64,000 nt of DNA from Octopus vulgaris (Eukaryota), in assembly GCA_951406725.2 (NCBI GenBank), contig OX597832.1, forward strand, positions 3,720,001-3,784,000. Reading direction: 5' to 3'. Of the stretch, positions 11,826 to 61,643 are shown piece after piece. A program made the position numbers and the translations under genes. The notes beneath the pieces were generated by a model, which did no database searches, was not told the origin of the DNA, and saw nothing but the letters and a program-made list of their open reading frames with translations. Every line of letters begins with the position of its first letter. The first letter of the stretch is position 1.

Positions 11826-11972
11826 AATAATGCTGGTGAAATCAGAGAGGACTCTCCTCTTAATTTAAATGTGATCCCTCTGTGGGAGAAGAATATAACT
11901 GGAAGAGGAATTCGTATTTGTGTTCTTGATGATGGTTTAGACTATACACACCCAGATATTGCCAGAAACTAC
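11826..11972 (+). CDS. Convertase exon A (catalytic Asp)
   Basis: tttag|AATAAT...AACTAC|gtgagt, 147 nt, phase 0/0: [49 protein letters not shown]. Confidence 0.93.
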
Positions 11973-14900
11973 GTGAGTATTATTCAACTTTCAACTAATT
12001 TATTTATTATATCTTATTTATTGCAAAATTTTTACTTGATTGTGTGCAGGTTAGTGAGGAGTACACCCTGTATTGCTATTTAGTATCAATTATGAGGCAG
12101 CACGTTTGAATCTGGTCAAGCGGGTTAAATATTTCAACCTTCAGTTATCATTTAAAATTGTGGTGAATGGAAATATATTTCTTCGGCCAGTATATCTAGA
12201 AAAGTAAGGTAGTGTGCTAGCAGAATTGTCAGCACGCCGAGTGTGATGCTTCGTGGTTTTTCGTCTGTGTAAGTTGAATTTTTACGTTGCCGTATGGTTC
12301 AAGATTGTATTTGTTTTGTGTAATTGTTTTGGATTTTTGCTGTTCGCAGCGGTGGTGTTTTTTTAAGAAATGACAAGGAGGAACATGTATTCTGACCTCA
12401 GTGAGTCGGATCTATCGACTTCGGAAGAAAAACTAGCGAGGGCGGTCAACAGACTGGATATGGAGTTAGAAGGAAGAAGGACTTTCGCAGGAGCAATGAA
12501 ACCAACAAGAGGTTAACTTTCTAAGTTACCGGATGGCCAAAAATGGGTGAAGAAGGTAGGCGGTGACGTGGAATTGTCTCTGCCAAGGAAAACGATGAAG
12601 AGGTTTGAAATAAAAACTATAACATACAAAGTGTTTGCGACAGAAAAAGAAAGATAGATTCAGTCGAAATGGAAACCGCGGAGGAGGCATTATGGTCAAC
12701 AGCGGAGAAGGTAATATTCCTGACAAGAGGAAATAAGTATGGTACTGTCGTTGTGCAGTTCGAGTCGGAGGAAGTCGCTAGGAGGATGGCTGCAAGGACT
12801 ATCAAAACAGAAAAAGTATTCCTTCTGCCCTCGTATCTGGGAAGGAAGACGTCCATGATCAGGGTGGAAGGGATCCCGCGCCCGACATAGAAGCTGAATG
12901 GGTAGTGGGAGCCATCCTCATTGACAATGAGGATAAGGTAGATATACTTTAGGCCACGATTACGGATGAAGGCAACTGGAAGGGAGGAGTATTAGAGATG
13001 AGCGTCCAGGCGGAAACTGAAGTCCTGGAAAGCTTAACAGAAGTAATCACGATGGGAGACATAAGTCTGCGAGTATGGGTGGAGGGCGGAGCTCCTCGAT
13101 GTCTTAAATGTGGCATTTAATGTCACATAAGAGCTAACTGTCCTCCACCAGCGAAGGAACCAACGAAAGAACCTGTAAAAGTGGTAGAAGATACCCGGAA
13201 GCCGCAAGAGGAACAGAGAGAGGCAGAAGACGAAAAGATGGAAGATCAAGCAAAATGGGAAACCAATGGTAAAAGGAAGAAGAGAAAAAGAAAGAAGGCA
13301 AGTTATAATGAACCCCAACCCACCCCAGCACCACCCACACCCTCTTCGTCCCATCCTTCCCCTGCAGACACAAAACCTACCCACTCCCCGCCAATAAGAA
13401 AACAAAAAAGCAGACAAACAGCACAGCTTACAAAATTCCCCTCCCGTTATAGGTTTATTAGACAAGGAAGACGAGGACCTGTTGGAAATATTGAGGGACT
13501 GTGGTGAAGTTGAATTGCCGGATAATTGAGATGAGGAGGAGTGTATGGGGGTGCTATTAACGGGAAAACAAGTGAAAGAACTCGAAAATGAACTGAACAA
13601 TGTTTTTCTGTTAGTAAGAAAGGAAATAGACCCGGATAAGAAAAAAGAACTTGAAAAACAGTATGGGGTGAAAATAAGGGACTAAGTATTTTTCGAAAGA
13701 CTATAAGAGGAGGACATAGGAAAAGAGGACAGGTAAGTGATGTTATCCGATGGGGCGGGTAACATCACTTTCATCTTTTATTTTCACCCTCTCATTTTTA
13801 TCATGTTTTTTTTGCGCCTTATGTCCCCAGTGTGTTGTTTGTTTCTTATCTTTGTAATCCCGTTCTAGGTAATAAAGAAATTAGAATCGTTTGCCCGCCG
13901 AACAGAACGCTTAGCGGCATTTTGTCTCTCACTACGTTCTGAGTTCAAATTCCACCTAGGTCGACTTTGCTTTTCATCCTTTCCGGGTCCATAAAATATG
14001 TACCAGATGAGCACTGCGGTCGATGTCATCAACTTATCCCCTCCCACGAACTTGCTGCCTTTGTATCAAAATTTGAAATCAATATATAAAAAAAAAGTTA
14101 AATATAAGACAAATTATAAGTGTCTAGTCTAGTGTTTCTCAGCCAGGCGGCCTTCTCCTTCTACTAGAAGGGATTTTTTATCCGACTGGTGGAATGTTGA
14201 TTGGGAGTAGAATTGAAAACAATTTTATTTTATAGAAAATATCCTAACTTGTGTATTAGGATATGTTTCCATATTTGGTGGTGTACAATTGACAATGTTC
14301 GTTATAGTCTTCTAAGTTATAGAAACAAAATATAGAGAAATAAACAAATTTAATTCAATTTCAGTTCGCGCAATTGTAAATACAAAAGGTTTTATACTCC
14401 ATAGTGATGGAGTATATAATTCTGCCAAAGTAAAGAATAACTTTTAATTCATTTATTAATATTTAATTCGATGACAGTGTGAAATAAATTAAAACATGTT
14501 TTTCTCACTTGTGGGATGGATTAAACTGATGTCTATAGATATAAAGTGTAACTTAATATAAAACATTGATTTTAGAAATCCCATTCAAACACTTATCACA
14601 GAATAGAATTTTAGTAACTGTTAAAAAAAAAAAACCTTGCATTTATTTGAAAATTAGACTTTTGGCACTCTTAATATGTTATGGGATAACTGATTTCAAT
14701 TATGTTTATGCTACTCATTAAACTTTATTGGAAATATCTTCGAGAGGAAATAGTTATGAAATGTGAGGAAAGAAAATGTTTAACTCGTATGTGACTCAAG
14801 ATTTGGTGTGCCTCCCACACACTTCCTTGACGTCAACGATTTACGTCCTTTTATCAATGCTGTTACTTCCAGTCACACACCTACACACACATATGCAAAC

Positions 14901-20900: not shown

Positions 20901-23900
20901 ATATCTAATATTACTGCTATACGTAAGGCGGCGAGCTGGCAGAAACGTTAGCACGCCGGGCGAAATGCTTAGCGGTATTTCGTCTGCGTTACGTTGTGAG
21001 TTCAAATTCCGCCGAGGTCGACTTTGCCTTTCATCCTTTCGGGGTCGATAAATTAAGTACCAGTTACGCACTGGGATCGATATAATCGACTTAATACCTA
21101 TGTCTGTCCTTGTTTGTCCCCTCTGTGTTTAGCCCCTTGTGGGTAATAAAGAAATAGGTATTTTATCTACCGTTACGTTCTGAGTTCAAATTCCGCCGAG
21201 GTCGACTTTGCCTTTCATCCTTTCGGGGTCGGTAAATTAAGCACCAGTTACACACTGGAGTCGATATAATCGACTTAATCCGTTTGTCTGTCCTTATTTG
21301 TCCCTTCTGTGTTTCGCCCCTTGTGGGTAGTAAAGAAATAGGAAAGGCGGTGAGCTGGCAGAAACGTTAGTGCGCCGGACGAAATGCTTAGCGGTATTTC
21401 ATCTGTCGCTACGTTCTGAGTTCATATTACGCCGAGGTCGACTTTGCCTTTCATCCTTTCGGGGTCGATAAATTAAGTAACAGTTACGCACTGGGGTCGA
21501 TATAATCGACTTAATCCGTTTGTCTGTCCTTGTTTGTCCTCTCTGTGTTTAGCCCCTTGTGGATAGTAAAGAAATAGGTATTTCTTCCGAGTTTGTGGTC
21601 TGAGTTCAAATACTATCGGGATCGACTTTGCCTTTTATCCTTTCGGAATCGATAAAAAATAAGTACCAGTTGAGCACTGGGATTGATGTAATCGACTTAG
21701 CACCCCCACCTAAATTGCTGACCTTGTGCCAAAATTTGAAACCGATATAACTGCTATGGCTAGATACGGTCTAATTTTAACCAATCATTCATTATCTAAT
21801 CAATCATCAGATACGCTTCTTAAAGAACCAGACATCTCTCACTACTTTAATGATGATAGATATTGCAAAGCTTAAGTATCGGCTGAAATAGTTTTACCCC
21901 TATCATATTGATATATAATTAATTTCGAGTGTTCGGTGAATCTAATATTCATATGAAACGTTTTAAAGTTAATATGAATCTGTGCATTGGTCATTTCAGC
22001 TAGTGTTCCTAAGTTCCAATCTCAACAGAACTCACTTGGCTCCTGAAAAATCGACTATTCTCTCTTCTGCAAATAATGGACTTGTTTAGTCAAAAGAAAA
22101 TAATCAAGTGCGATAATCAATAGCTAACTGCTCTTCTATTTTTAATAAATACGAATTGATGGATTTTCTAAACCTGTTAATTATGTGTGCGGAGTGTGGC
22201 GTACCTTGTGACGTATGTTGTAAGCAATAGATAAATGGTTCGAGCCTCGTCTTTTATTGTTTTTCCTAGAGGGACAAGAGAGACCATGGATGCTGCACAT
22301 CTTCCCTGACTAATTAATAAAAATGAGTAAATAAATGAGTAAGTAAAGTAGGAATAGAAACCAGATTCTAGGATTCGGTTTTGTCGGTAACTTTCATCAC
22401 TCGATAGAGGTAAATACTTAAAGAATAGGTATTACAGTTAGGGGATATATTGGATCTTTTTTTATCTCAAGCTAACCCTAAAATAGTTTTTTTATGGCAT
22501 AAAGAAGTTTTGTAAAGGCGATGTTGTTTTTGGCTGAGGACTTTAAAATCGTAAAATTAAAATACATTCTTTTGACACGGACAAGTTGTGTGTGTGTTGG
22601 ACGAATAGATTGAAATGGTTCATACTTCGTAATGGCATTTAATAAAAGTGAATTACTGCTCTAATTACGTTAAAATATCCTATACAGTGATTAACTTCAG
22701 TTCTATATTTAAGACATGAGAAATTATGTACACTATTTACATTTGACGGATATTTGTCCTCATCTTGTTTGTTAACACAACGTTTCGGCTGATATAACCT
22801 CCAGCCTTCATCAGGTGTCTTGGGGAAATTTCGAACCTGGGTTCTCATTCCTATATGGGGTGGGTGGGGTTAATGAAAGATGTGATGTGTATGTGTTAGG
22901 AATGAGAACTAAGGTTCGAAATTTCCCCCAAGACACCTGATGAAGGCTGGAGTGTATATCAGCCGAAACGTTGTGTTAACAACAAACAGGATGAGGACAA
23001 ATATCTGTCAAATGTAAATAAAGCGATTAATTTGACCATAATTCTTAAACTAAAAAATGTATTGAGTTTTCTGATGGATTTTAACCACGTTTGCATGCAA
23101 GGCATGTGTAAACAGGTTGCTGCCATGTTAACTCTACGAGCAATCCAGGTGTTAGTGATAGGTTCAGTACAAAATCTTTTTAATAAATGATTTTCTGACA
23201 ACTCCTAATCTATTTCTGGTTTCAGTTGTATTAAGATACATAAGTTTCCCATCTGTCGAGGTACGATAGCTTCGCTGTTAAGATAACGTGAAAGCTGTTA
23301 GCTTTCAGTTAACTCTACAAGACAGTGGTCTGAATTTAGCGACAGATCTCCTGCCTTAATGAGAAAGAAAACTATTACCTGAAGTTATCTTTCGTATTTG
23401 CCAGAAAAAAAGAGACAAAAATATTTGTCTTCGACTTATATTTTTTTCTTTTTTGCCGCGTATATTTTAACTTTTAATGCTTCATATATAAAATTGCTGA
23501 CACAGGCATAATCGTAGTTTATCTGGAGTAAAGTACTTTGATCGGGACATCAATTCATGACCTCGATGTTTCTCCCTTGCGAATATATATAGAAAGATAA
23601 AAAGAAAATATTCGAGGGAATTACAGTTGAAAGTATAAACATCACATGCGTGAGAGAGAGAGGGGGGAAAGGAAACTAAGGAAGTTCAACCTCATGATGA
23701 GAACTGACTGATATATCTTTATACGCTAGATATTATGCAATAGTTATATGGTATCATGAGTAAAACTCTTTTGAAGTGGTAGCTTCCTGCTTGGATTCTT
23801 TCCAACAGATGTTATTAAATAAAAAAAATAATAAAATATCCTTGAATTTCCGTCCTGAGACTTAAGCTTAGGGAACTACATTTCCGAATGCTAAAAAATA

Positions 23901-26900: not shown

Positions 26901-29900
26901 TTGATAATTTTCGGAGTGATAGTTGTTTTACTCATATTTGTTGAACATTGGTTGTGTAAAGGGGCCGTGAATGTATGTTCTAAGCCGGGTCACCAATTTG
27001 TAAGGGACCGTACGATGTGAGGTGAAGAGAATGGCTCTTTAGTACCACATCACACAGCTGTTACAATAAAAGAGAAAATTGATAGAACCATTTACTTGCC
27101 AGATGGAAAAAGAAGACAGCAACCGCGTAGAATGATTAAGAAAAGATTTATTGATATGTTAACATGTGTGTCTGTGTGTGCGTTATGTATATAGAATAAT
27201 AGACAAGACGTCATGAGAACAAAATGTATGCGTGTGTGTTAAGTACATATGTGTATGCGTGTGTGTTAAGTACATATAAGGATGGCAATGAAGAAGACAG
27301 TGAAAGAGTCTATAGCCATCGAATTGAGAAGTAAGTTCATAGACACAAGAAAGATGATGAATAACACCAGTTCGTAGTCAACGGTACACGGTAGTTGAAA
27401 TACTGTATCAAGAAGCCGCGACCGTGATGCTGAGCCGGTTACAGATATATGTCATAGTGAAGTCGTGACTGTGATGCTGCTGCCTGGGTCACTTGGTACA
27501 GGAGTTCATGCAGGTTGTATATTCGCTGTTGATCCATGGAAAAATAATTCACGAACAGTGAAGTGTTGGAACCTGGGTGATTTGCTTGCTGAGCTGTGAA
27601 CATAGAGAGATGATGTTGACGGTGTTAAGGACATGGTGGTGACGAAGTCAGAGGTTGCCGTAATGCTGTTGGACGAAGTTGGTGAGTCTCAACGTAGCTA
27701 CTGTGGTGGTGTTTGGCTGGCGTTGTCGCGGAAACTGGCTGTGTCTTTGTGGTCAGTGGCTAGACCTTAGAAGGTCTGGGACCAAAGAATTTCTTTATCT
27801 ACCTATAAAAGGTATACATAGAAGTGACACTACAAGGGACGAACACTTACATTCTTACAAATGGTTTGGGTTGCGATGAAATGGAAACAAAAAATCGAAA
27901 AAATCGGATAAAAGGATGAAATAAAATTATATACAATTAAAAATTTATAAATAATGTTCCGGAATATTTTTTATGGTTAACCCGCTTTGTTTTTAAAATT
28001 TTCTCCTTTGGATTTTTTTTTTCCTTTTTCCTTCTTTTCGCCTTGACCGGCTATGCTAGCACGACCCCATTCATTCTCAAATTCCTTACTACAGATATCC
28101 ATCTTTTCCCGAACGTACTTTGCGACAGGCACTTTTTCTCCAGACGGATCTTTCTCGACAGGTGGAAGTTGAAATAGCTTACCAACCCGAGTCCGGACAT
28201 GAAGGGACTAGTCCCAGTCCCTTTCGCTCGTGTCGTCTATACCGTTTCTTTCAGTATGGCTACTTCGCAGAAAAACGATGCCTTCTTTTCCTTGTTGAAG
28301 GAAGAAGGCGGTACGATCTTAATCATTGACTTAGTCGAGAGCCGTACTCTCTCTGCATCTGACATCAGTTGTTCGACATATGTTATCAACTCTCTCAACT
28401 CCTCACAGTGTACGAAGGCGTGCACGACAGTTTCGCTGGCGCGCCCGTACCTCGGACATGTGGGGATGGTGTCAAAACCGTGTCTAGACAACATCTCTCG
28501 AACCGGTAAGGCCGATCGGTAGCACAACCAAGCCAAGAATTTCTGGAAGTCATCCAGGTACCTCGGCCGGAATGTCCTTCCGAACAGGTTGGTCAGTTGC
28601 TCCTCATCGAAGCTCAGAGTCTCCCCCAGGACATCGTCGGAATTATGCTCTACCAACCCTCTATAAAAATCTGCAGTGGTAACCTCGCTGCCGGTATTGC
28701 TCGTCCGAGAGAACAGAGTGAGTGCTTGTCTGCACTCCCTCTACAATTCTCCCATCCTAGGTCTCCGCTTGATCCATGTACCTAAGTCCCTGAGGGACTT
28801 CAGTTGTGGAAAGAGTTGCTTGGCATGCGATGACCACACCTGCTCACCATCTAAGTAGCACCAGAGATGTCTCAGCCTCAGCGCGTACTTGTGCATCATC
28901 AGCCAAGGCATCCCCAGCCCACCCTTTAACAGATTTTGGCAGCAGATGGAGCACCTCACGAGTGGCATTTTCTCTTCCCACAAAAAGCGAAAAAGGATCC
29001 GTTCCAACTTGGTCAGCCACAAACCGGGGCAAAGCACGACGGTTAGGCGGTAGGTTATCACCGATGCTATAAACACTTGTGCAACCTCAGCCCTTCCTTG
29101 CCGAGTTGCAAGCCAACTGATTTGTCCTGGTTAATTTTTGCTCCTGCCACCGCTTCGCATCCTTTGATGCTGTCTTCTACACGAGGTATCTGCTCTTCAT
29201 CAGACACGGTGATGGTAACATCATCCGCATATGCCGTCGCACTTTTACCGTAATACAAATCACGCGGGTCTGCTCCCATAGTTCCCAACCTCCGCAGCAG
29301 CGGCGCAAGAGCCAATACATACCGCAGCGGGGACAGGGGGCAGCCCTGGCGAACCGAACGCTCGATTACGAAGGGGTTCGAGAAGAACCCATTTACCCGG
29401 ACGACAGATTCGATGTTGCCATTCATAGCTTCGATCCAGCCTCGGAAAGTTGGGCCCAATCCGACCGCCCGGAGGACCGTCGCCAGATACCGATGGTCGA
29501 CCCTATCGAATACCTTAGACTGGTCTAAATTCACCAGTGCCCCACTTTTGCCAGGAATTTTACCAATCAACTGTATGGTGTAGCGAATGAGGTGAAGGTT
29601 GTCATGTATTGTCCTTCCTGGGATGGCACATGTCTGTGCCTCTCCTACCAGGTCGCCCACGACAATCCTCACTCTTTTGGCTAGCACCTTGGCCAAAAGC
29701 TTAAACTCTGTGCTTAGCAGAGTTATGGGCCGAAAATTATTAATGTTATTCCCCTTGTTAGGGTCCTTTTTGATCAGTGTCACCACTCCTCAGCTTACAG
29801 ATTTGGGAATTCTCCCATTCTGCTGCCAATTCGCATATAAATAGGACAGTACGTTCCCGAACAAATCTGGCATACTTTTATAAAATTCATAAGGTAGACC

Positions 29901-32900
29901 ATACAATGCCGGCGACTTGTCCCCGGGGCAATCGGAAAACACCTCTATAACCTCCTCGGCCCTTTACAGTGCTCAGCGTCACGCGTCGAAAGACGCGGGC
30001 CGCCGGCCAGAAAATGCCGGAGTGCATCCCCATGGTCTAGCGCCCCGCTCCTCCCGAACAACGTTGCAAAGTTCTTGCGAAAGCCTTGCGCATCTCTTCT
30101 TGTCCTTGGATCTCCTGTCCATGCTCGTCTACCACAGACCTTCTCTTAGCCTCCATGCCACGTCGGGTTTCTTCCGAGCGATCCCACCCTGTAACATTGA
30201 TTCCCTCGCGGCCCAGTTCACGTATTTTAGCCCGGACTCTGCATCCTTCGTGTTTAACATTGAGGTGTCGGTCCAGGGCCGATCTTGCTGCCAACACTTG
30301 GGATGCAGAGCCCATACTCAGTGCCTCTTCAAATGCCTTAACTAATTCCCTTTCTACTCTAGTCTGCTCTAGACTTAACTGCTTGCTAAATCTAATCGAC
30401 TCAAGTCGAATAGCTCATTTTAGGGTACTCCACCACCGGTTGTTAATCACAGAGCCGGTTAGTGACCTCATTACTAACACATTAATCTGGCTACAGTAAG
30501 TTTCGCAATCCAATAGGGACTTGTTTAACTTCCAATAGCCAGATCTCTGTCTATGAACCTTATCTATATGCAGCCTACACGTCACTAATTTTTGATCCGT
30601 ATAGGGTACATAGGTAAACTGCGAACAGCTTAAATTAGACTTATCTCTAGCATTAACTATTATCCTGACTACATAAGACCTGATAGATCCGTAGTTATTA
30701 GACCAAATCCACATTGGAACGCTCGGATTATCAAGTCTTTATCGATCTGCCAGCCTAAATCGCTTCAGTAGATCGACGAGGTGTGAGTTACACTTCCTAA
30801 CATTCGAGCCTACGCTATCCAGGCGTGCATCCAGAATAGCGTTAAAATCACCTAGCAAAACTAGTGTCCTTGATGTCACATGAAAGTTCTCCAGGCGTCG
30901 ATAAAACTCATCCAGTTTGCGTGGCGTGCCAGGCGCGTAGATGCCAACCAGCCTGAAGGCCTTACCTCTGTATGTCAGATCCAGAACGACCGGCTCGCCT
31001 TCTAGGCCAACGAAGATCGTACGTGTCTGCAGGGCCAGGCTTTTCCGGAGCAAAACTACAACACCTCTTCTCCCCCGGCTAGGAGAAATGATTTTCTCAT
31101 AGTCTAGAGAGTTGAGAAGGCCTGCAGCTTGTCTAGCCTGATCTCTGTAGCAACCATAATATCAATTCTGTTTGACCTGAGCTCGTCGAAGCGGCAAGCC
31201 TGCTTCTTCTTCGAACCCAGGCCACGGACATTTAAACACGCAATGCATAGCGCAGCCATATCAAACACGAAAAAAAGGAAATTCGAGCTTACCTGCTCAT
31301 TCATCATTCGTGTGGTGGTTGGGTTATTCTCAATATTTCTAGGACAAGTTCCTCACCTCCTTTCTTTCGTACAAAAATGGTTCAACCGACGGGTTAAATA
31401 CCTTCGGTAGTTTCTTCAATTCTGCTATTTCTTTTGGGTGCCTGTTTTTGAGTTCGTTGTATAGTTTTCGGGAAATTTTTCCCAACGTCACTGGGCTCAT
31501 CTTATTGTCATTGACATATAGGGATGACCCTATCCAGGTATTTATTATTTTGTATGCGATTGTCGCAGTATCTTCTCTTTCAGGAATATCGATTGTCACC
31601 GACATAAATTAGTTTTCTTTCTTTTCCTTTTCCCTTCAGTTCGGGTTTCTTGATAATTTTGGTTTTGGGACCGCTTCCTGTGTATTGGTGGGCGACTCCA
31701 TTCTTTTGGTTCTCTTACGTGACACCGTCAGGAAGTCCATATTTTCAGCTGACGGTGTCACAACTGACTCTGGTTTCTTGGGATTTTTCCCCAGTAATGG
31801 AGGCGGTCACTTTCTGTGTAATGGCCTTCTTGGCCGTAAGCGCCACTTCTCCATCTTTCTCCTTAAGGTCATTTTTACTGGTAGAGGCGGTCACTCTCTG
31901 TGTAACGGCCTCCTTGGCCAGAAGTGCCGCTTCCTTATTTTTCCCCTTGGGGTCAGTTTTACTAGTGGAGGTGATCACCTGCTCTGTCACAGTCTCCGTG
32001 GCTGGGGGACCGTCTCTTCGTTTTTCTCTTCCTCCTCCTCCTCTGCTTCCTTGTCCTTCATTTTTTGTGGGGCATTTTGACCTCAGGTGCCCTTTTTTCC
32101 ACAATCAAAGCACCTGGGTCTTCTCCCCTCCTCATGTACTGCCAATACTGATTCCTCTACATGTATCGTCTCGAGTAAACTTTCCAAATCCAGACTTGTT
32201 GCTTGTGCTAAGATCTCCAGAGTTTGACCCCACCAATTCTGTGGAGCGTCTCTGGAGATCTGAATGATATTTATTTTGTCCTCTCTCTTGTAGAGGAGTG
32301 TGGAAACGATCCATGCCACCTTCACCTCTGTTTTTAATCCTTATCCGGGATGTTCTGCGTCCCAGATATAGAGGCAGTAGCGTGATGTTGCCACATTGCA
32401 AGGTTCTAGTTGAGAACTCTCTTGCCTTCTCAATCGACTCGAACCTTGCTTCAATGGTGGCGTACCTTGTACCTCGGGTTAGGTACTTTATTTCGTTCAT
32501 CACCGACCCGAGACACCTTTCAACTATACTTTCTTCAAAAACTTTAGTCTTTTCTTTTCTACATCATATGATTTGTATATAATTGTCTTTTCTTTTGTCG
32601 TGTTCCTTATTTCACTTGGTAGTGTTATGTTGCTTTCACCGTTTTCTTCGGTAAGCATTCCATAGTAGGCCTGAATGTCTTTCTTTTTCAATATAATTGT
32701 TTCACGTCCACCAACAGCGGCGGAAAAATTATTATTTTTTTTTTTTTCTATTTTGTTCTTCTACAGAAGACATTTTTTTTTTTAAATATTAAAAAAAGAA
32801 AAATATTCAAAATTCCACAATTTTTGTTCCGAAAGGAAACGCGGTTCAAACTTAACTGCAAGCGGTAAACACAATTTATATATCCTTCCCCCTTGGGAGA

Positions 32901-35900
32901 GGATAACAGTTCTCAATATTAACACAGACAAGAAATTTTAACAACGTTTCCCTTACGAGAAACCAACAAGCACAATGTAACAATTCCTGCAAGCAGGCAA
33001 CAATTATAACGACTAACCTTCAAGGTAAACACAAGCAAATATATCACGTAAGAATGTGAGCGAACGACAGTCTGGAACCAAAGACCTCGAAAGAGGAAAA
33101 GCTGAATTTTTATAAGGAACTGTAGGCTCAAAACAGGGTAGAGAACAGGCTGTCGAACGTGATCGTATTTAGGGCCTGCAACTTGTTATACACTACAGAT
33201 GGTGCGACAGAGTAAGAAACTAATTGCACCAATACCAACCAATCAGTGTAGTAGACACAATGGGATCCAAATAGCTGCCAAAAGCTAGCTTTCCCTGCTA
33301 CGTTCGAATGCACGTATATATAATAAATGGGATAGAGGAATTACAACTGAGTCTACGCTACAGTCGTGGGCTTAATGGTTGAATTACGAATGGTTGTTGG
33401 ATAACTTCGATTGTTAGATTGGTGATCGCTGGAACTATGGTCCATTGAAGTGTTAAATGATAGAAAATGATTTTAGGCTAATGTCTGGGGTCAAATGAAA
33501 AATGGTCGGTTGAATAATGATTTGTAAAATGATGTAAGTTAATTTAAGGAATTTAGAATAAATGATTGTCAGATTAATCCTTGTTGGACTAATCATTGTT
33601 AGATTGATGATTGTTGAACAAATGATTGTTCTATTGATAATTGTAAAAGAAATGAGTGTTGGATTAGAGCTTGTTAGACTAATGATTGTTGAAGTGACTA
33701 TAGTTGGACAGATTATTGGTGCACTGACTATTGCTATGCTAATGATTGTTGGACCCGTGATTGTTGGAATAACTATTGTTGGACTACTGATGGTTTGACA
33801 AGCGATCGCTCTACTGTTGGTTGTTGGATTAATGATGGATGGAGCAGTCATTGTTAAATTGATTTTCGTTGGAGTAATAGTTGTCAGACTAATTTTCATT
33901 GCGCTAGTCATTGGACTAATGATTTTTATAAAAACTATTGTTAGATTGATAATCGTTGGACTAATGATTGTTGAACTGATAATAATTGTTGGTCAAATGA
34001 TTGTTAGACTGTTTATTGCTTTTGACAAATGATTGTTGGAGTGATTATTGTTTTTTACTTATGATTATTGGACTAATGGTTATTAGACTCATGATTATTG
34101 GACTAATGTTTGTTTGACTAATTGTTGTTCGATGGATGATTGTTGAACTGATGATTGTAGGATTGTTGGACTGATGATCATTGAACTTAACATTTTTGGA
34201 GTAGTCTTATTAATCCAACTGCTACTGTTAGATAAATGATTGGGTATCTAATCCATATTGGAACAATGATTGTTAAATTAGTGGTAATCATTTGAATAAA
34301 GATGACTGGACTAGTTATTGTTAGAATAAACAATGTAGTAATTATTGAATTAATGAGCGTCCTTGTATTAGATTACACAAGTAATGAGTGTTGATGTGAC
34401 AATTGTGGGACTAATGATTGCTAAACATATGATTGTTGGAACAATGATGATTGAACTGATACTTGAATGACAGCTGTTTACTGGACTAATGATTGTGCAT
34501 TTACTGATTGTTGGTCTGATGATTGTTGAACTAGTGAGTGTTGACTAATGATTAGTTAATTAGAATTTTGTTGGACTGAAGACTGTTAGTTGGATGATTA
34601 ATATTAGATAATGGGTTGTGCACTAATGATTGCTGGACTAATTATCTTTGGACTGATGATAGGTTTTTATTTTTTTGTTTTGGTAATTGTAAACTAATTG
34701 TTCACCTGGGGATTGTTAAACTAATGAGTGTTGCATCAAGGATTTTAGACTGGATAAGATTTATCTAATGACTGTTACATAATGATTTTAGGGTGAATGC
34801 AAATTAACTATTGACCAGTGGACTAATAACTATTGTTTATCAGATGAATGGTGAACTAATGGTTTATGGAATGAATGATAGATTAATGATTGTTGAATTA
34901 AGGATTTTGGGAATGATGATTATTAGACTAACAACTGTTGGACAGTATGTTACTCATGTATATAGTTTCAGTACCTTGTCTTTCTACTGTAGAATCTTCT
35001 CTATCCTCCACTATAGTCTCCTTTTTTTTTTTACCTCTATTCACCTTCCTCTACCCTCACCTGTATCATCTGTACCCTCCTCCCTCCACAATCTTCATCT
35101 TCCATCAACTGTACACTCTCCTTTTCTCTACCTCCAACTCTAAATTCTCTTCTACCCTTATTTTCACTGCATTATCTATTCTTCTACTCTCAGCTGTAAA
35201 GTCTCCCTCTTTCCTCTGCCCTATAGCATCCCATTCTTCTTCCTTTCGCTATAAAGATACCTTATCTTTTCCCCTCTTCAACATCCACATTCTCTTGCCC
35301 CTCCTCACCCACACAACACACTTTCTTTGCTTCTTCCTTCTACTGTATTCACTACCTTTCTTTCCTCTCTTCTTTTATTTCTAATCTTCCTCTCTTTAGA
35401 CTTCAGCTCATTCCTCACCAATACATTTATTTTATTTTCCACCCGTTCACTCCTGTTTGCTCCCTCCCTATATCCTTTTTACTATGGAACTTCAGCTATT
35501 TCATTCACAGTGAAATATTAATGATATTATATAACAATTTTTGCGTTTAGATGTTTAAGTGTTTAAATGGGGCCATTTTACAGAAAACTTCTTACTTAAA
35601 TGCTACTCTTTAAGTGTAAAAATTTGCTTAGAATTTTATCTTTGAAACCTAACAAATCCTATTTGCTAAATGATTCATAACGAGTAGTCTGACCTTGTTC
35701 TTGATACTTCCGGAAGTTTTGATATCTCAAACTTTGAGACCCTCCCACTGTTTATGTAGGGTCATGTCTCACTTGCCTTTCCTGCTTCTTTGATTTTGAT
35801 GACACTCACAGCTGCAAACCATTTGACAAATACGAGTGGTTTCAAATAAAACGGAAATAGAAAGGAAATTAACTTTCTTTTTATCACGTGGTCAAAGAGT

Positions 35901-51420: not shown

Positions 51421-51657
51421 TAAGGGTAGAAATTGATATTTATCAATTAAGACCAGTGGTCTAGCATATTAAAAAAGAATCCGAAGATTAAAATATTTAT
51501 ATATACCAATTAAGGACTGAACACGAAAAGTGGACAGTCAACATGCTAGATATAGACGTCAAATCGCCATTCACCACATAATCTTTTGTGGTGAATGGCG
51601 ATTTGACGTCTATATCTAGCATGTTGACTGTCCACTTTTCGTGTTCAGTCCTTAATT

Positions 51658-51704
<47 letters not shown>

Positions 51705-52857: not shown

Positions 52858-53460
52858 TTAGCGAGCTGGCAGAATCGTTGGCACTTTGGACGAAATGCTT
52901 AGCGGTATTTCGTCTGCCGCTACGTTCTGAGTTCAAAATCCGCCGAGGTCGACTTTGTCTTTCATCCTTTCGAGGTCGATTAAATAAGTACCAGTTACGC
53001 ACTGGGGTCGATATAATCGACTTAATCCGTTTGTCTGTTCTTGTTTGTCCCTTCTGTGTTTAGCCACTTGTGGGTAGTAAAAAAATAGGTATTTCGTCTG
53101 TTGCTACGGTCTGAGTTCAAATTCCGCCGAGGTCGACTTTGCCTTTCTTTCAGGACCGATAAATTAAGTACCAGTTACGCACGGGTCAAGGTAATCGACT
53201 ATTCCCCTCCCCCAGAACTTCTGGCCTTGTAGAAAGGATTATATTAGGCGGCAAATTGGCAGAATCGTTAGCACGCCGGGGAAATGCTTAGCGGCATTTC
53301 GTCCGTCCTTACGTTCTGAGATCAAATTCCGCTGAGGTCCACCTTACCTTTCATCCTTTCGGGGATCGATGAAATAAGTACCAGTTGAGCACTGGGGGTC
53401 AATGTAATCGACTATCTCACCACCACTAAAATTTCAGCCTTTGTGTCTTTAATAAAAAGG
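52858..53460 (+). mobile_element. Cluster of three Meta/MESC-like SINE units
   Basis: A long-tail unit ends at 53087 and is followed by an internal restart GGTATTTCGTCTG (53088-53100, repeating 52904-52916). A separate short-tail copy starts at about 53246. Confidence 0.85.
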
Positions 53461-54045: not shown

Positions 54046-54102
<57 letters not shown>

Positions 54103-54127
54103 TATTGTTGTTGTTATTGTTATTATT

Positions 54128-57100
54128 GTACTAATTGTTCAACACTTGGTAGTTTGAGGCAAATTCCAACTGCATCACTTGCTACACATCCGTGTTGCTG
54201 GGGTTGTGTGCAGCATTGTGGGTTCTTTTTGTCGTTGGGCGTGTTGAAACTCTTACCGGTATTGTTTTGTGTTAGTTTTTTTTTCTCTTGAGGTGTGGTG
54301 CAGTCTTTTGTTGTGTTACTGCTTGCATTGCGTGTCGAGTGTGTAATGCGCTGATTTTCAAGCTTGCTGGTAGAAATTTATTTCACTGGGCAATTGCTGC
54401 ATAGAGTGTGTCTTGTGTTTGTGGGTTGTTTTCTTTGTGTTGTATTATTGAACTGAAAATGTATTGCACAGGGTGTGGGCTGTTCCTAGCAGGGGTATAT
54501 TTTGGATAGTGTGTAGTGTTGAGGATCCTGGTATAGCTTCTACGTTTTTGTTCATATATCTTTTTTTTATCATGTTCAATACTCCAATTATTATTGGTAT
54601 TGTTTTTACCTCCATGCCCCACATCTTGGATACTTCAATTTCGAGGTCTTTGTACTTCGACAATTTCTCCACTTCTTTTTGGACAATATTTTGATCAGGA
54701 GGACTGCAACGTCTCAAGCACTCTTTCAACTCGATGATCATACCAAATACTTCTAGCTTCAAATCTTCATTTCTGACTAAGCTTCTTGTGCAAAACTTTC
54801 ACACCTTGGTCATGCCTCCATGTCTTATATTCTCCCCGAGCCAATTTAGGACATTCTGCAACAATGTGTGCCATTGTTTCATCCCAAATTCCACACACTC
54901 TATATATCACTGGTACCTTTCCCCTAAACACATATTTTCTCAAGTTTGATTTTAACGCTTGATCTTGAACTATTATAATAAGGCTCTGTTTCTTTTTCTT
55001 TAATTGTCCTTTCTTCAACCAAACCCAGGGTTTTGTTTCACGTATATCGTCAGTGGCTTTCCAAAACTGACCATGAAAAGATTTCTCTTCAATCTGTTTA
55101 ACACGCTCTTTTTGAATTTCATTCTTGCTCTTTTCTCCTATTCCACATCTGATCACCTGCATCTTATTCACTGTCTTTAATAATTTCTCTGTGCTGTTCT
55201 ATAAATATTCAAGTAGGCTTTTTCGTTCCATCTGTACACACCCTTCCACAGCAATTAAACCTCTTCCACCCGGGTCTCTCATGTACAACTGGTTGATATC
55301 AGCTTTCGGATAGTAAACTCCGTTGATTGTCAGAAGCCTTCTAGTTTTTCTCTCCAGTTTCTGTATGGTTTTGATCCAGTCAACAATTCCAGTTCCATAT
55401 CTGAATACCTGTACCACTCTTGCATTTATTGCTTCAATAACATTTAAAGAATTCAATTTTGACAGTAATATTTTCCTCACTCTTCTTGTATATTCCCGAC
55501 TGATAATTTGCTTCATCTCTTTATTTTTTTTATTTCATCTGCTTCCAGTATTCCCAAATGCTTATACCATTCTCCTTTCTCAACAGCTTTCATTGTTTGC
55601 CCCTTTAGCATTTCGGTTCCCTAGCTTCCTTCAAATTTTGCTCATTTTTTTATCACTATAGCGCACTTTTCAATCCCAAATTTCATACCTACACCATTTG
55701 AGAAACTATGAACAGTATGTACAAAACTTTCAAGTTGCTTCTCATTTTTCGCTTAAAGCTTTATTTCATCCATAAAAAGGAAATGATTTATCTGACCATA
55801 TCCTTTCCCCAAATCATTAACTATTTGAATATTTCGTAGTCTCAAACTGAGTGGTATCATGGTTAATACAAATAGTAATGAAGATAAGCTATCACCTTGA
55901 AATATATTACGTCTGATGTTCATCTTCCCAAGTTTTTGTTTTTCTCCTATCAGTTCAGTATTCTATTTTTTTTACTTTCATTACCATTTTCTCCATATTT
56001 TCTGCCACTTTAAACATGCTCATTATTTTACTTACCCAACTGTGCCGGAACATGCTATATGCTTTTCCGTGCTCCAACCATGTTACATTCATTCCCATCA
56101 ATCTGCGTCTACAATTTCTAATTATCATTTTATCAACTAATTTGTTGTCTTTTGTTGCCCTACTTTTCTTCCTGCATCCGTTCTGTTCTACTAGAAGTAG
56201 ATTGTTACTATCCAGGATGATTACATAACTTTTCCGCATAAATAGTAATAAGAATATAGGTCGAAAATTTAGTTCCAATTTACCTTTCAAGAGGTCCTCG
56301 AGACATAAAAACATCCGTTCACTTGTCATCCAGGTAGGGACATGACTTGCTGCAGGCATTCATCCAGGCGTGCAGTGATCTTTTCATGCAATTGTGTAAA
56401 ATTCTTCAGCCAGTAACCTTGTACTCCAACCGGACAAAATCCTTTCCAATTTGCCATATTTTTTAACTTCAGCTTATCTGAGTACAGATCAATTCTGACG
56501 TTCTTTTGTTTTGGTGCAGTTGCAAGTTATCTTTCCACTTGTCTTAGCAACTCGGCATCTTTTTTATGATCCAAAGCTCCCCTCAAAATACTTTATTTTC
56601 TTCCGCATCAGGAATCACGTCCTAAAGTTGTTCTCCCTCTATTTCCTCAAAAAAGATGCCTTCTGTTCGATTGAAGCAATCTACATCTAGCACCATATCT
56701 TTTTTACAATTTTGCCTTTAATGCTGTCACTTCTCTTTGTGACTATTCTCCATGTGCAGTTTTTTTTTCTTTTTCTTCTAACCTGTACTTCCCATTCAAT
56801 TTTCTCATTCTTGAGTTCTCTCATTATCCTATTCAGTTGCCTCAGTTCTTTCCACATCCTTTTCAACTTCATCTATATTCCCTTCCTCTAGTTTGGTTCT
56901 TTCTTTTCTCTCTCCTCATCTTTTTCAAGTTTTCTGCTTGTATCTTATTATGTCAGCTACAACATTAGCAACAGCTATGATTAGTTTGTTTGGTTTCACT
57001 AATGTTCTCTATTTCAACCAAGCTCTAAACCGCCAATTACTCCACCTGTGTCTCTCCTTACTTTTCCTCTGTCTATATATTTTACATTTGGTGGCACTTC

Positions 57101-58148: not shown

Positions 58149-58206
<58 letters not shown>

Positions 58207-58535
58207 GCTAATTGTTCAACACTTGGTAGTTTGAGGCAAATTCCAACTGCATCACTTGCTACGCATCCGTGTTGCTGGGGTTGTGCGCAGCATTGTGGGT
58301 TCTTTTCTGTTGTTGGGAGTGCGCAAACTCTTCCCGGTATTGTTTCTGTTATGCTTTTTTTCTCTCTTGAGGTGTGGTGCAGTCTTTTGTTGTATTACTG
58401 CTTGTATTGCGTGTCGAGTGTGTAATGAGTTGATTTTCAAGCTTGCTGGTGGAAATATATTTCACTGGGTAATTGTTATATAGAGTGTGTCTTGTGTTTG
58501 TGGGTTATTTTGTTTGGGTTGTATTATTGAACTGA
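58207..58535 (-). mobile_element. 3'-UTR-only copy of the R4/Dong-type element in (TAA)n
   Basis: Closely similar to 54128-54455; (TAT/TAA)n on both sides. Confidence 0.85.
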
Positions 58536-58606
58536 TAATAATAATGATAATAATAATAATTATTATTATTATAATTATTATTATTATTATAATTACTATT
58601 ATTATA

Positions 58607-61423: not shown

Positions 61424-61643
61424 TTGCAGCGTGGAAGGTGTTTGTAAGCCATTTAAGAAACACACAAAAACCGTTAGATTCACTTCAACATTTAAATTTA
61501 ATTTACCAAAATATTTTCCTCGCTTTGAGACCGCGACCTCAAAGCGACGAAAATATTTTGGCAAATTAAATTTAAATGTTGAAGTGAATCTAACGGTTTT
61601 TGTGTGTTTCTTAAATGGCTTATAAACACCTTCAACGCTGCAA
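61424..61643. repeat. Near-perfect palindrome, 106-bp arms, 8-nt loop
   Basis: 61424-61529 versus 61538-61643, with 4 mismatches by eye. Confidence 0.93.

Follow-up and report, generated by a model that had tools for sequence, protein, structure and literature searches.

Non-autonomous LINEs that have kept ORF1 include HeT-A, HAL1 and Ag-Sponge (PMC5786205). They come from three clades, with HAL1 belonging to L1, HeT-A to Jockey and Ag-Sponge to CR1 (PMC5786205, PMC5753468), and HAL1 is derived from mammalian L1 (PMC5753468). The ORF1 proteins of such elements have been proposed to multimerise with the proteins of a helper (PMC5786205, PMC5753468), and the reason for keeping ORF1 is not settled.

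Target preference is documented in the Tx1 clade, where Tx1 inserts in Tx1D, Tx1-Mar and SINEU insert in Mariner-N4_AMi, and Keno, Kibi and Koshi are further cases (PMC4494074). Tx1 families and their SINEU passengers target other transposons, with 20% used as the criterion of target specificity, and co-transcription with the target can strengthen targeting (PMC4494074). Neither a SINE target nor an ORF1-only Tx1 derivative is listed in the accessible part of that survey (PMC4494074). The literature searched on HAL1-type, Tx1, target-specific and octopus repeats gave no description of the octopus family considered here, which Repbase may contain. The accessible part of an octopus repeat annotation lists L1-Tx1 families without the terms ORF1, target or non-autonomous, and its supplements may hold the family (PMC13282606).

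The locus lies in a 64,000-nucleotide stretch of Octopus vulgaris DNA (contig OX597832.1, positions 3,720,001 to 3,784,000; hereafter the window, from whose first letter coordinates are counted). The element that it holds is dead and belongs to a multi-copy family of ORF1-only non-LTR retrotransposons; it is not a LINE shortened by a local deletion. We put at about 85% the probability that this family moved as a 1.66-kb unit, likely through the endonuclease and reverse transcriptase (RT) of a Tx1-like LINE, preferring base 15 of a SINE or TG-like sites and carrying a 5' end that resembles the SINE site. By analogy, it would work like HAL1, HeT-A and Ag-Sponge, as a Tx1-like, target-preferring variant not found in the literature searched.

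Structure of the Window Element

The element sits in sense orientation in the intron after a subtilase-family exon (11826..11972, + strand, as are all features of the element; Pfam Peptidase_S8, E 9e-5), which has visible splice signals and belongs to a host gene that is presumably furin/proprotein-convertase-like. Alignment of SINE heads places the first 14 nt of the target SINE, now decayed, upstream of the insertion (12208..12221). The original prediction set the 5' junction after 12267, but the start of the element has to be moved from 12268 to about 12222. Comparison of 5' loci shows that 12222..12267 resembles SINE bases 15-60 in diverged form, carries letters diagnostic of the family and overlaps the target duplication. 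The 5' UTR that follows (12268..12369) is common to copies.

The decayed ORF1 (12370..13706) runs from an ATG at 12370 to a stop at 13704-13706 and is predicted to encode two RRM-like domains, a CCHC knuckle, an acidic/basic and proline-rich linker and a C-terminal domain. As originally proposed, it is homologous to ORF1 of the LINE elsewhere in the window (27789-33069), with 38% identity (tblastx E 1e-34). The knuckle, at 13100-13141, has an in-frame stop within it, and 181 core codons contain two stops and two indels. Since ORF1 continues past the knuckle into the C-terminal domain, the 3' UTR is only ~175 nt long.

Comparison of copies defines a shared ORF2-loss junction at 13728..13770, made up of a conserved, splice-donor-like CAGGTAAGTGATG, at the position where full LINEs begin ORF2, and a 15-pair hairpin (13735-13770). 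The T-rich 3' tail (13771..13881), delimited by the 3' ends of copies, has a predicted terminal hairpin and ends in AATAAAGAAAT without poly(A). ORF2 is absent between ORF1 and the 3' end GGTAATAAAGAAAT (13868-13881), in agreement with the proposed lack of endonuclease and RT. The 3' junction does re-enter the SINE head further upstream, as had been noted: SINE sequence begins with base 15 at 13883, 33 nt before the GGTATTTCGTCTG motif, and SINE comparison places this remainder of the target (13883..14085) in a short-tail subfamily. The overlap of 5' and 3' sequence is imperfect (15 of 19 nt) and, as first described, no clean duplication. By eye, the target SINE head has what we take to be A- and B-box-like parts, of which the element's 5' end presumably has the A-box-like part only, without the B-box-like part. 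ARAGORN finds 0 genes in the SINE head, and Rfam returns nothing at threshold.

Copies and Mobility

A DNA search of the 2.8-Gb genome with the window element gives at least 49 matches; the best 40 of 720 candidates scored include four further full-length copies at 83-88% identity and more full-length relatives near 70%. A search with the 3' UTR yields 21 near-complete matches at 80% identity or above. Six full-length family copies are mutually 80-87% identical. The 1.66-kb unit, which has ORF1 and lacks ORF2, is present in ~20 genome copies that are 80-88% identical, and ORF1 passes into the 3' UTR through the same junction and hairpin at the former ORF2 start. Clear target duplications are present in five of 21 copies examined end to end (L143, 20 nt; L145, 17; L151, 13; L157, 24; L154, 15), four of them 5'-truncated. 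Three more copies have duplications within simple repeats, and the remaining copies show none. Truncation at the 5' end together with a duplication at the element's own 3' end indicates that the ORF2-less unit itself was retrotransposed. The family thus has the features of ORF1-present non-autonomous LINEs: ORF1 is kept, ORF2 is absent and the deleted unit is amplified.

The decay of the window copy and the LINE lying 14 kb away might suggest a local deletion of ORF2 from a single LINE copy. There is almost no chance that this is correct, given many copies with one junction and the window LINE's ORF1 being only 38% identical. The proposal of an ORF1-only, HAL1-like, Tx1-like derivative present in multiple copies is upheld by these family copies, by the shared ORF2-loss junction and by the ORF1 clade described below.

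Landing Sites in the Target SINE

The flanks of family copies are not random. Twenty 3' ends are intact, and eight of these (40%, against a target-specificity criterion of more than 20% of flanks in one repeat) lie at SINE base 15, two at AGA sites outside SINEs and ten at TG-like sites; the background for SINE base 15 is 14 of 3713 candidate sites. The family therefore prefers base 15 of this abundant SINE or TG-like sites. At base 48, the GGTATTTCGTCTG site, the count is 0 of 20. The original prediction of SINE-head targeting survives for the eight copies at base 15, but not for the 13-nt site that it named, and half of the copies are at TG-like, non-SINE sites. That site, supposedly shared with the long-tail SINE, was identified through GGTTTTTCGTCTG (12255..12267). 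This sequence has a single occurrence in the window and agrees with the junction of the long-tail SINE in 12 of 13 nt; none of the 20 intact family 3' ends is found at the site.

The two target classes, AGA and TG, are weakly clustered on the tree (4-5 changes vs ~8 when shuffled). A tail word complementary to AGAAAC is present in copies of both classes alike and so does not explain the split. Among LINE relatives, AGAA flanks are seen in 7 of 12 with the AGAAAC-complementary tail type vs 0 of 17 others, and the seven are one subfamily.

Long-tail SINEs stack at two landing sites in the SINE, base 48 (the GGTATTTCGTCTG site) and base 15. Exact tail-to-base-15 junctions number 1137 genome-wide and 0 in the control, and 29 of 30 base-15 junctions examined carry the long-tail SINE tail. 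Across the genome, insertions of the long-tail SINE into SINE heads are at base 48, at base 15 and sometimes at base 1, and stacks of this SINE are visible in the window at 20926-21750 and 52860-53445.

One could also read the stretch from 12205 to 14085 as a composite SINE, in which head, ORF1 passenger and SINE body were moved together by the SINE's partner. At one locus (L154/L125) the host SINE is enclosed as a whole by a 17-nt duplication, and several full-length copies are flanked by SINE on both sides. However, no SINE follows 12 of 20 3' ends, and the duplications of truncated copies fall right at the element's own 3' end. Nor are the downstream SINEs of one subfamily or unusually similar: the eight host SINEs include at least three tail subfamilies, and their similarity (0.77) does not exceed that of controls (0.79), which makes them separate targets and not cargo. 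A composite SINE is accordingly very improbable.

Other families of the ORF1-only lineage each have a repeated flank of their own, none of them the SINE head (L019, L027, L029, L139 and L268; L023, L024, L026 and L030; L195 and L198). A distinct flank for each family points to repeated target switching.

Origin of the SINE-Like 5' End

The 46 SINE-like nucleotides at 12222-12267 belong to the element itself and form its 5' end. A SINE-like head with the same departures from the SINE is present at 14 of 16 5' loci examined (19 were found), and 10 of these 14 heads have GTCAG where SINEs have GTTAG. Of 132 SINE-type heads in the fetched DNA, eight have the GTCAG-type C, and all eight are family 5' ends. 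Of the options in the original prediction, the right one was thus a SINE head that belongs to the element as its 5' end. One full-length copy with a TG-tract 3' flank (L146/L163) still has the head. In two copies (L152, L154), private letters of the target are found on both sides, so the junction can fall on either side of the overlap; this and the SINE-like 5' end explain why the duplication of the window copy had seemed too diverged. A long-tail SINE has inserted at base 15 of one family head (L175).

The letters of the head also bear on whether the window copy was inserted at the GGTATTTCGTCTG site of the long-tail SINE, the upstream head being target DNA. This would fit a 5' junction at the end of the motif (12 of 13 nt) and a site that a sister family uses. 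It would, however, need a 45-nt duplication against the 13-24 nt measured, it is at odds with the 0 of 20 family 3' ends at this site, and the head letters are family-specific and accompany the element to the TG-tract copy. We regard such an insertion as highly unlikely.

The head as part of the element has a candidate origin. A sister ORF1-only family has junctions at the base 48-60 site (5' in L016/L189, 3' in L020/L194), suggesting capture of the head at that site and its retention once the insertion site had changed. It was likely captured when an ancestor used this downstream SINE site, and GGTTTTTCGTCTG is likely a fossil of that ancestral junction at bases 48-60.

A Long-Lived ORF1 Lineage

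A protein search listed 150 ORF1 matches, and 121 ORF1 loci were tabulated. All loci of the window lineage run into CAGGTAAGTGATG, the hairpin and the 3' end in place of ORF2. In full LINEs, ORF2 begins immediately after AGGTAAG, which maps the loss of ORF2 to this position. In a tree made by a quick method from 53 rows, with 21 frameshifted rows dropped, array units thinned and both the window copy and the window LINE absent, the ORF1-only rows, 44 of the 53, group in a single ladder-like clade (SH-aLRT 99) with the window family near its base. No ORF2 is found at the junction among the rows of this clade.

Comparison of seven families gives 21 pairs, of which 15 have dN/dS values of 0.06-0.17 (with dS above 1) and six are saturated. 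Within the window family, dN/dS is 0.23 for changes shared by at least two copies and 0.71 for singletons, as expected from selection in source copies and decay after insertion. The C-terminal part shows weak constraint in an in-frame test (0.54 shared vs 0.79 singleton). Purifying selection and an intact 472-codon ORF1 frame in young relatives argue that ORF1 is functional in source copies. Pfam zf-CCHC is detected in 17 of 20 ORF1 relatives at E<=0.05, and a fold model of the ORF1 core of a sister copy (pLDDT 68) has tandem-RRM proteins as best matches, plus the knuckle; ORF1 is thus predicted to be an RNA-binding protein gene. Its only database homologue is an Octopus sinensis protein (64%).

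With its shared junction at the old ORF2 start, covarying hairpin and saturated synonymous sites, this is one long-lived ORF1-only lineage. An unlikely alternative is that ORF2 was lost once per family, each time from a different LINE parent, and that selection on ORF1 is therefore older than the losses. Independent losses do exist, in that L253, L278 and L277 share another deletion and L273 and L274 are a third ORF1-only type, and the searches score best candidates only. But one junction and one hairpin are common to all families of the clade, none of its rows bears ORF2, and the value of 0.23 comes from shared changes inside the window family alone.

The ORF2-Loss Junction

Across 30 motifs, hand-chosen from 40 distinct ones for covariation analysis, the hairpin shows 95.6% pairing. 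Its covariation is 0.249 vs 0.151±0.012 in shuffled alignments (0 of 500 shuffles reach it), and the count of pairs changed on both sides is not above that of shuffles (287 of 500). In the ORF1-only lineage the predicted hairpin covers AGGTAAG. This motif is retained at the ORF1-ORF2 boundary in every LINE or derivative seen (window 13728-13740; window LINE at about 31285-31295, - strand; L075, L254, L253, L181). Its conservation in differing reading frames points to a role at the nucleotide level, such as a splice donor or a U1 site.

The retention of GTAAG makes it unlikely that ORF2 was lost through splicing at the donor-like motif. Contigs from four runs of guessed type span a young unit without a splice-like joint, which is not evidence either way. 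A stop-start overlap at the junction is present in the frame of the young family; it is not claimed for the window family, whose ORF1 stops ~30 nt earlier. Apparent ORF1-ORF2 joins in L181, L183, L265 and L269 are nested or neighbouring insertions.

Young Relatives in Tandem Arrays

Among the 150 ORF1 protein matches listed, 112 are 56% identical and stop-free. Eight regions that were fetched show 1.7-kb units arranged head to tail. Four of the eight regions end in a LINE with ORF1 and ORF2, and in two of these ORF2 is open over 1132 codons. For 56 array units, median identity is 99.0% within an array and 97.7% between arrays. The 5' junctions are variable and short truncated units occur inside the arrays, which favours repeated insertion over simple duplication. 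The arrays, built by the youngest members of the ORF1-only lineage, are likely recent or active (on G000, C2:138.76-138.79 Mb, L061-L063; C17:67.74-67.76 Mb, L065-L067; and C8, C14, C15, C1 and C3, L068-L080). They reach 14 intact ORF1-only units and are nested in the ORF1 of an older LINE; often an array ends in a full LINE whose 5' end carries a repeat of its 12-nt target.

Candidate Parent and Helper LINEs

An autonomous helper likely acts in trans for the window family, and the parent or helper LINE appears Tx1-like from sequence comparison. The full LINE beside the young relatives has APE, RT and zf-RVT domains (Pfam), with L1 ORF2p as its closest solved structure (E 1e-64); one match only among 35, at 26%, is named 'Transposon TX1'. 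Full LINEs have the same 3' tail as the ORF1-only family, and some have flanks of AGA type (L289) or GTGTG type (L292, L299, L307).

The search for a helper turned up long-tail SINEs, ORF2-bearing LINEs flanked by other sequence and two further families without ORF2, but no full-length LINE at SINE base 15. Among ORF2-bearing relatives, 0 of 29 readable ends lie at this base. Two of 30 relatives are at base 15, both ORF2-deleted. The ORF2-less families at this base are L253/L278, 87-91% identical to a full LINE (L281), and L273/L274. A SINE-like 5' end that differs from that of the window family is common to L253, L278 and L277 and to L275 and L276, which are ORF2-less, independent and at SINE base 15.

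The decayed, full-length window LINE (27789..33069, - strand), with ORF1 and ORF2, is a distant relative. It is neither the parent nor a SINE-targeting helper, given the 38% ORF1 identity and a 15-nt duplication in non-SINE DNA. It shares a 3' flank with an unrelated LINE copy, L315 (76% over 85 nt), which indicates one targeted site in another repeat.

A Possible Mechanism and Its Relation to Known Systems

In the mechanism we propose, the ORF1 protein would coat its own RNA and join it to the particle of the helper, and selection may keep ORF1 because of this joining. The helper RT would grip the shared 3' tail and prime at a nick near AGAAWCG, with a second cut ~15-20 nt downstream of the nick. 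The SINE-like head would anneal the finished cDNA to the target, giving a seamless 5' junction and rebuilding the site for later arrivals. The head may have been captured when an ancestor at base 48-60 was transcribed together with a SINE head, after which the family would have switched helper or site; the two target classes could correspond to two helpers. A wider reading, to which we give slightly less than even odds, is that one coding parasite lineage has, since the time of synonymous saturation, survived longer than many of its helper LINEs through repeated changes of helper and target. It would each time have captured its landing site as a 5' end, so that insertion rebuilds it, and its youngest branch would be active, building tandem arrays of intact ORF1 genes before full LINEs.

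Like HAL1, HeT-A and Ag-Sponge, the octopus element is an ORF1-only, multi-copy derivative of a LINE by internal deletion, and its young relatives stack head to tail beside a full LINE as HeT-A does. Unlike them, it has a Tx1-like parent instead of mammalian L1, Jockey or CR1, lacks poly(A), inserts with a sequence preference in a SINE head, has a 5' end resembling the target and forms one lineage that has persisted to synonymous saturation. HAL1 itself has a poly(A) tail and a T-rich L1 target. The family is not HAL1 proper: it ends in AATAAAGAAAT without poly(A), uses AGA and TG targets and has an RRM-like plus CCHC ORF1 whose only database homologue is from Octopus sinensis.

In R2-type mechanisms, the 5' target sequence is co-transcribed. 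The octopus element likewise has a 5' end homologous to the target and a junction without clean duplication, but in its case the look-alike has diverged and belongs permanently to the element, instead of being read-through of the current target. As with Tx1-clade LINEs and their passengers, it occupies a fixed position in another repeat or microsatellites and shows sequential tandem insertions (PMC4494074). Its duplications are similar in length to that of SINEU-3 (16 nt), and like SINEU it may be a passenger with the target of its helper (PMC4494074). It differs from the Tx1-clade passengers in coding for protein and in having a SINE head or TG-like tract as target.

The octopus ORF1 offers a clean case of strong selection long after the loss of ORF2. 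Old and young families with different targets coexist, and intact young copies adjoin LINEs with open ORF2, so that the need for ORF1 in cis, the choice of helper and the capture of targets become testable. If the reading of helper and target switching is true, the lineage would provide a platform, both natural and general, for mobilising coding cargo in trans to specific sites, and would directly test why ORF1 is needed in cis. There is also a warning for annotation: ORF1s of this kind are listed among host genes, and the real element boundary is masked by the SINE-like ends.

Other Repeats in the Window

The window also contains long inverted repeats of MITE-like or fold-back type at 51493-51672 (97%), 61424-61643 (95%) and 22734-23020 (81%). 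A 388-nt direct repeat (91%), possibly LTR-like, is found at 54075-54460 and 58152-58539, its two copies 4 kb apart.
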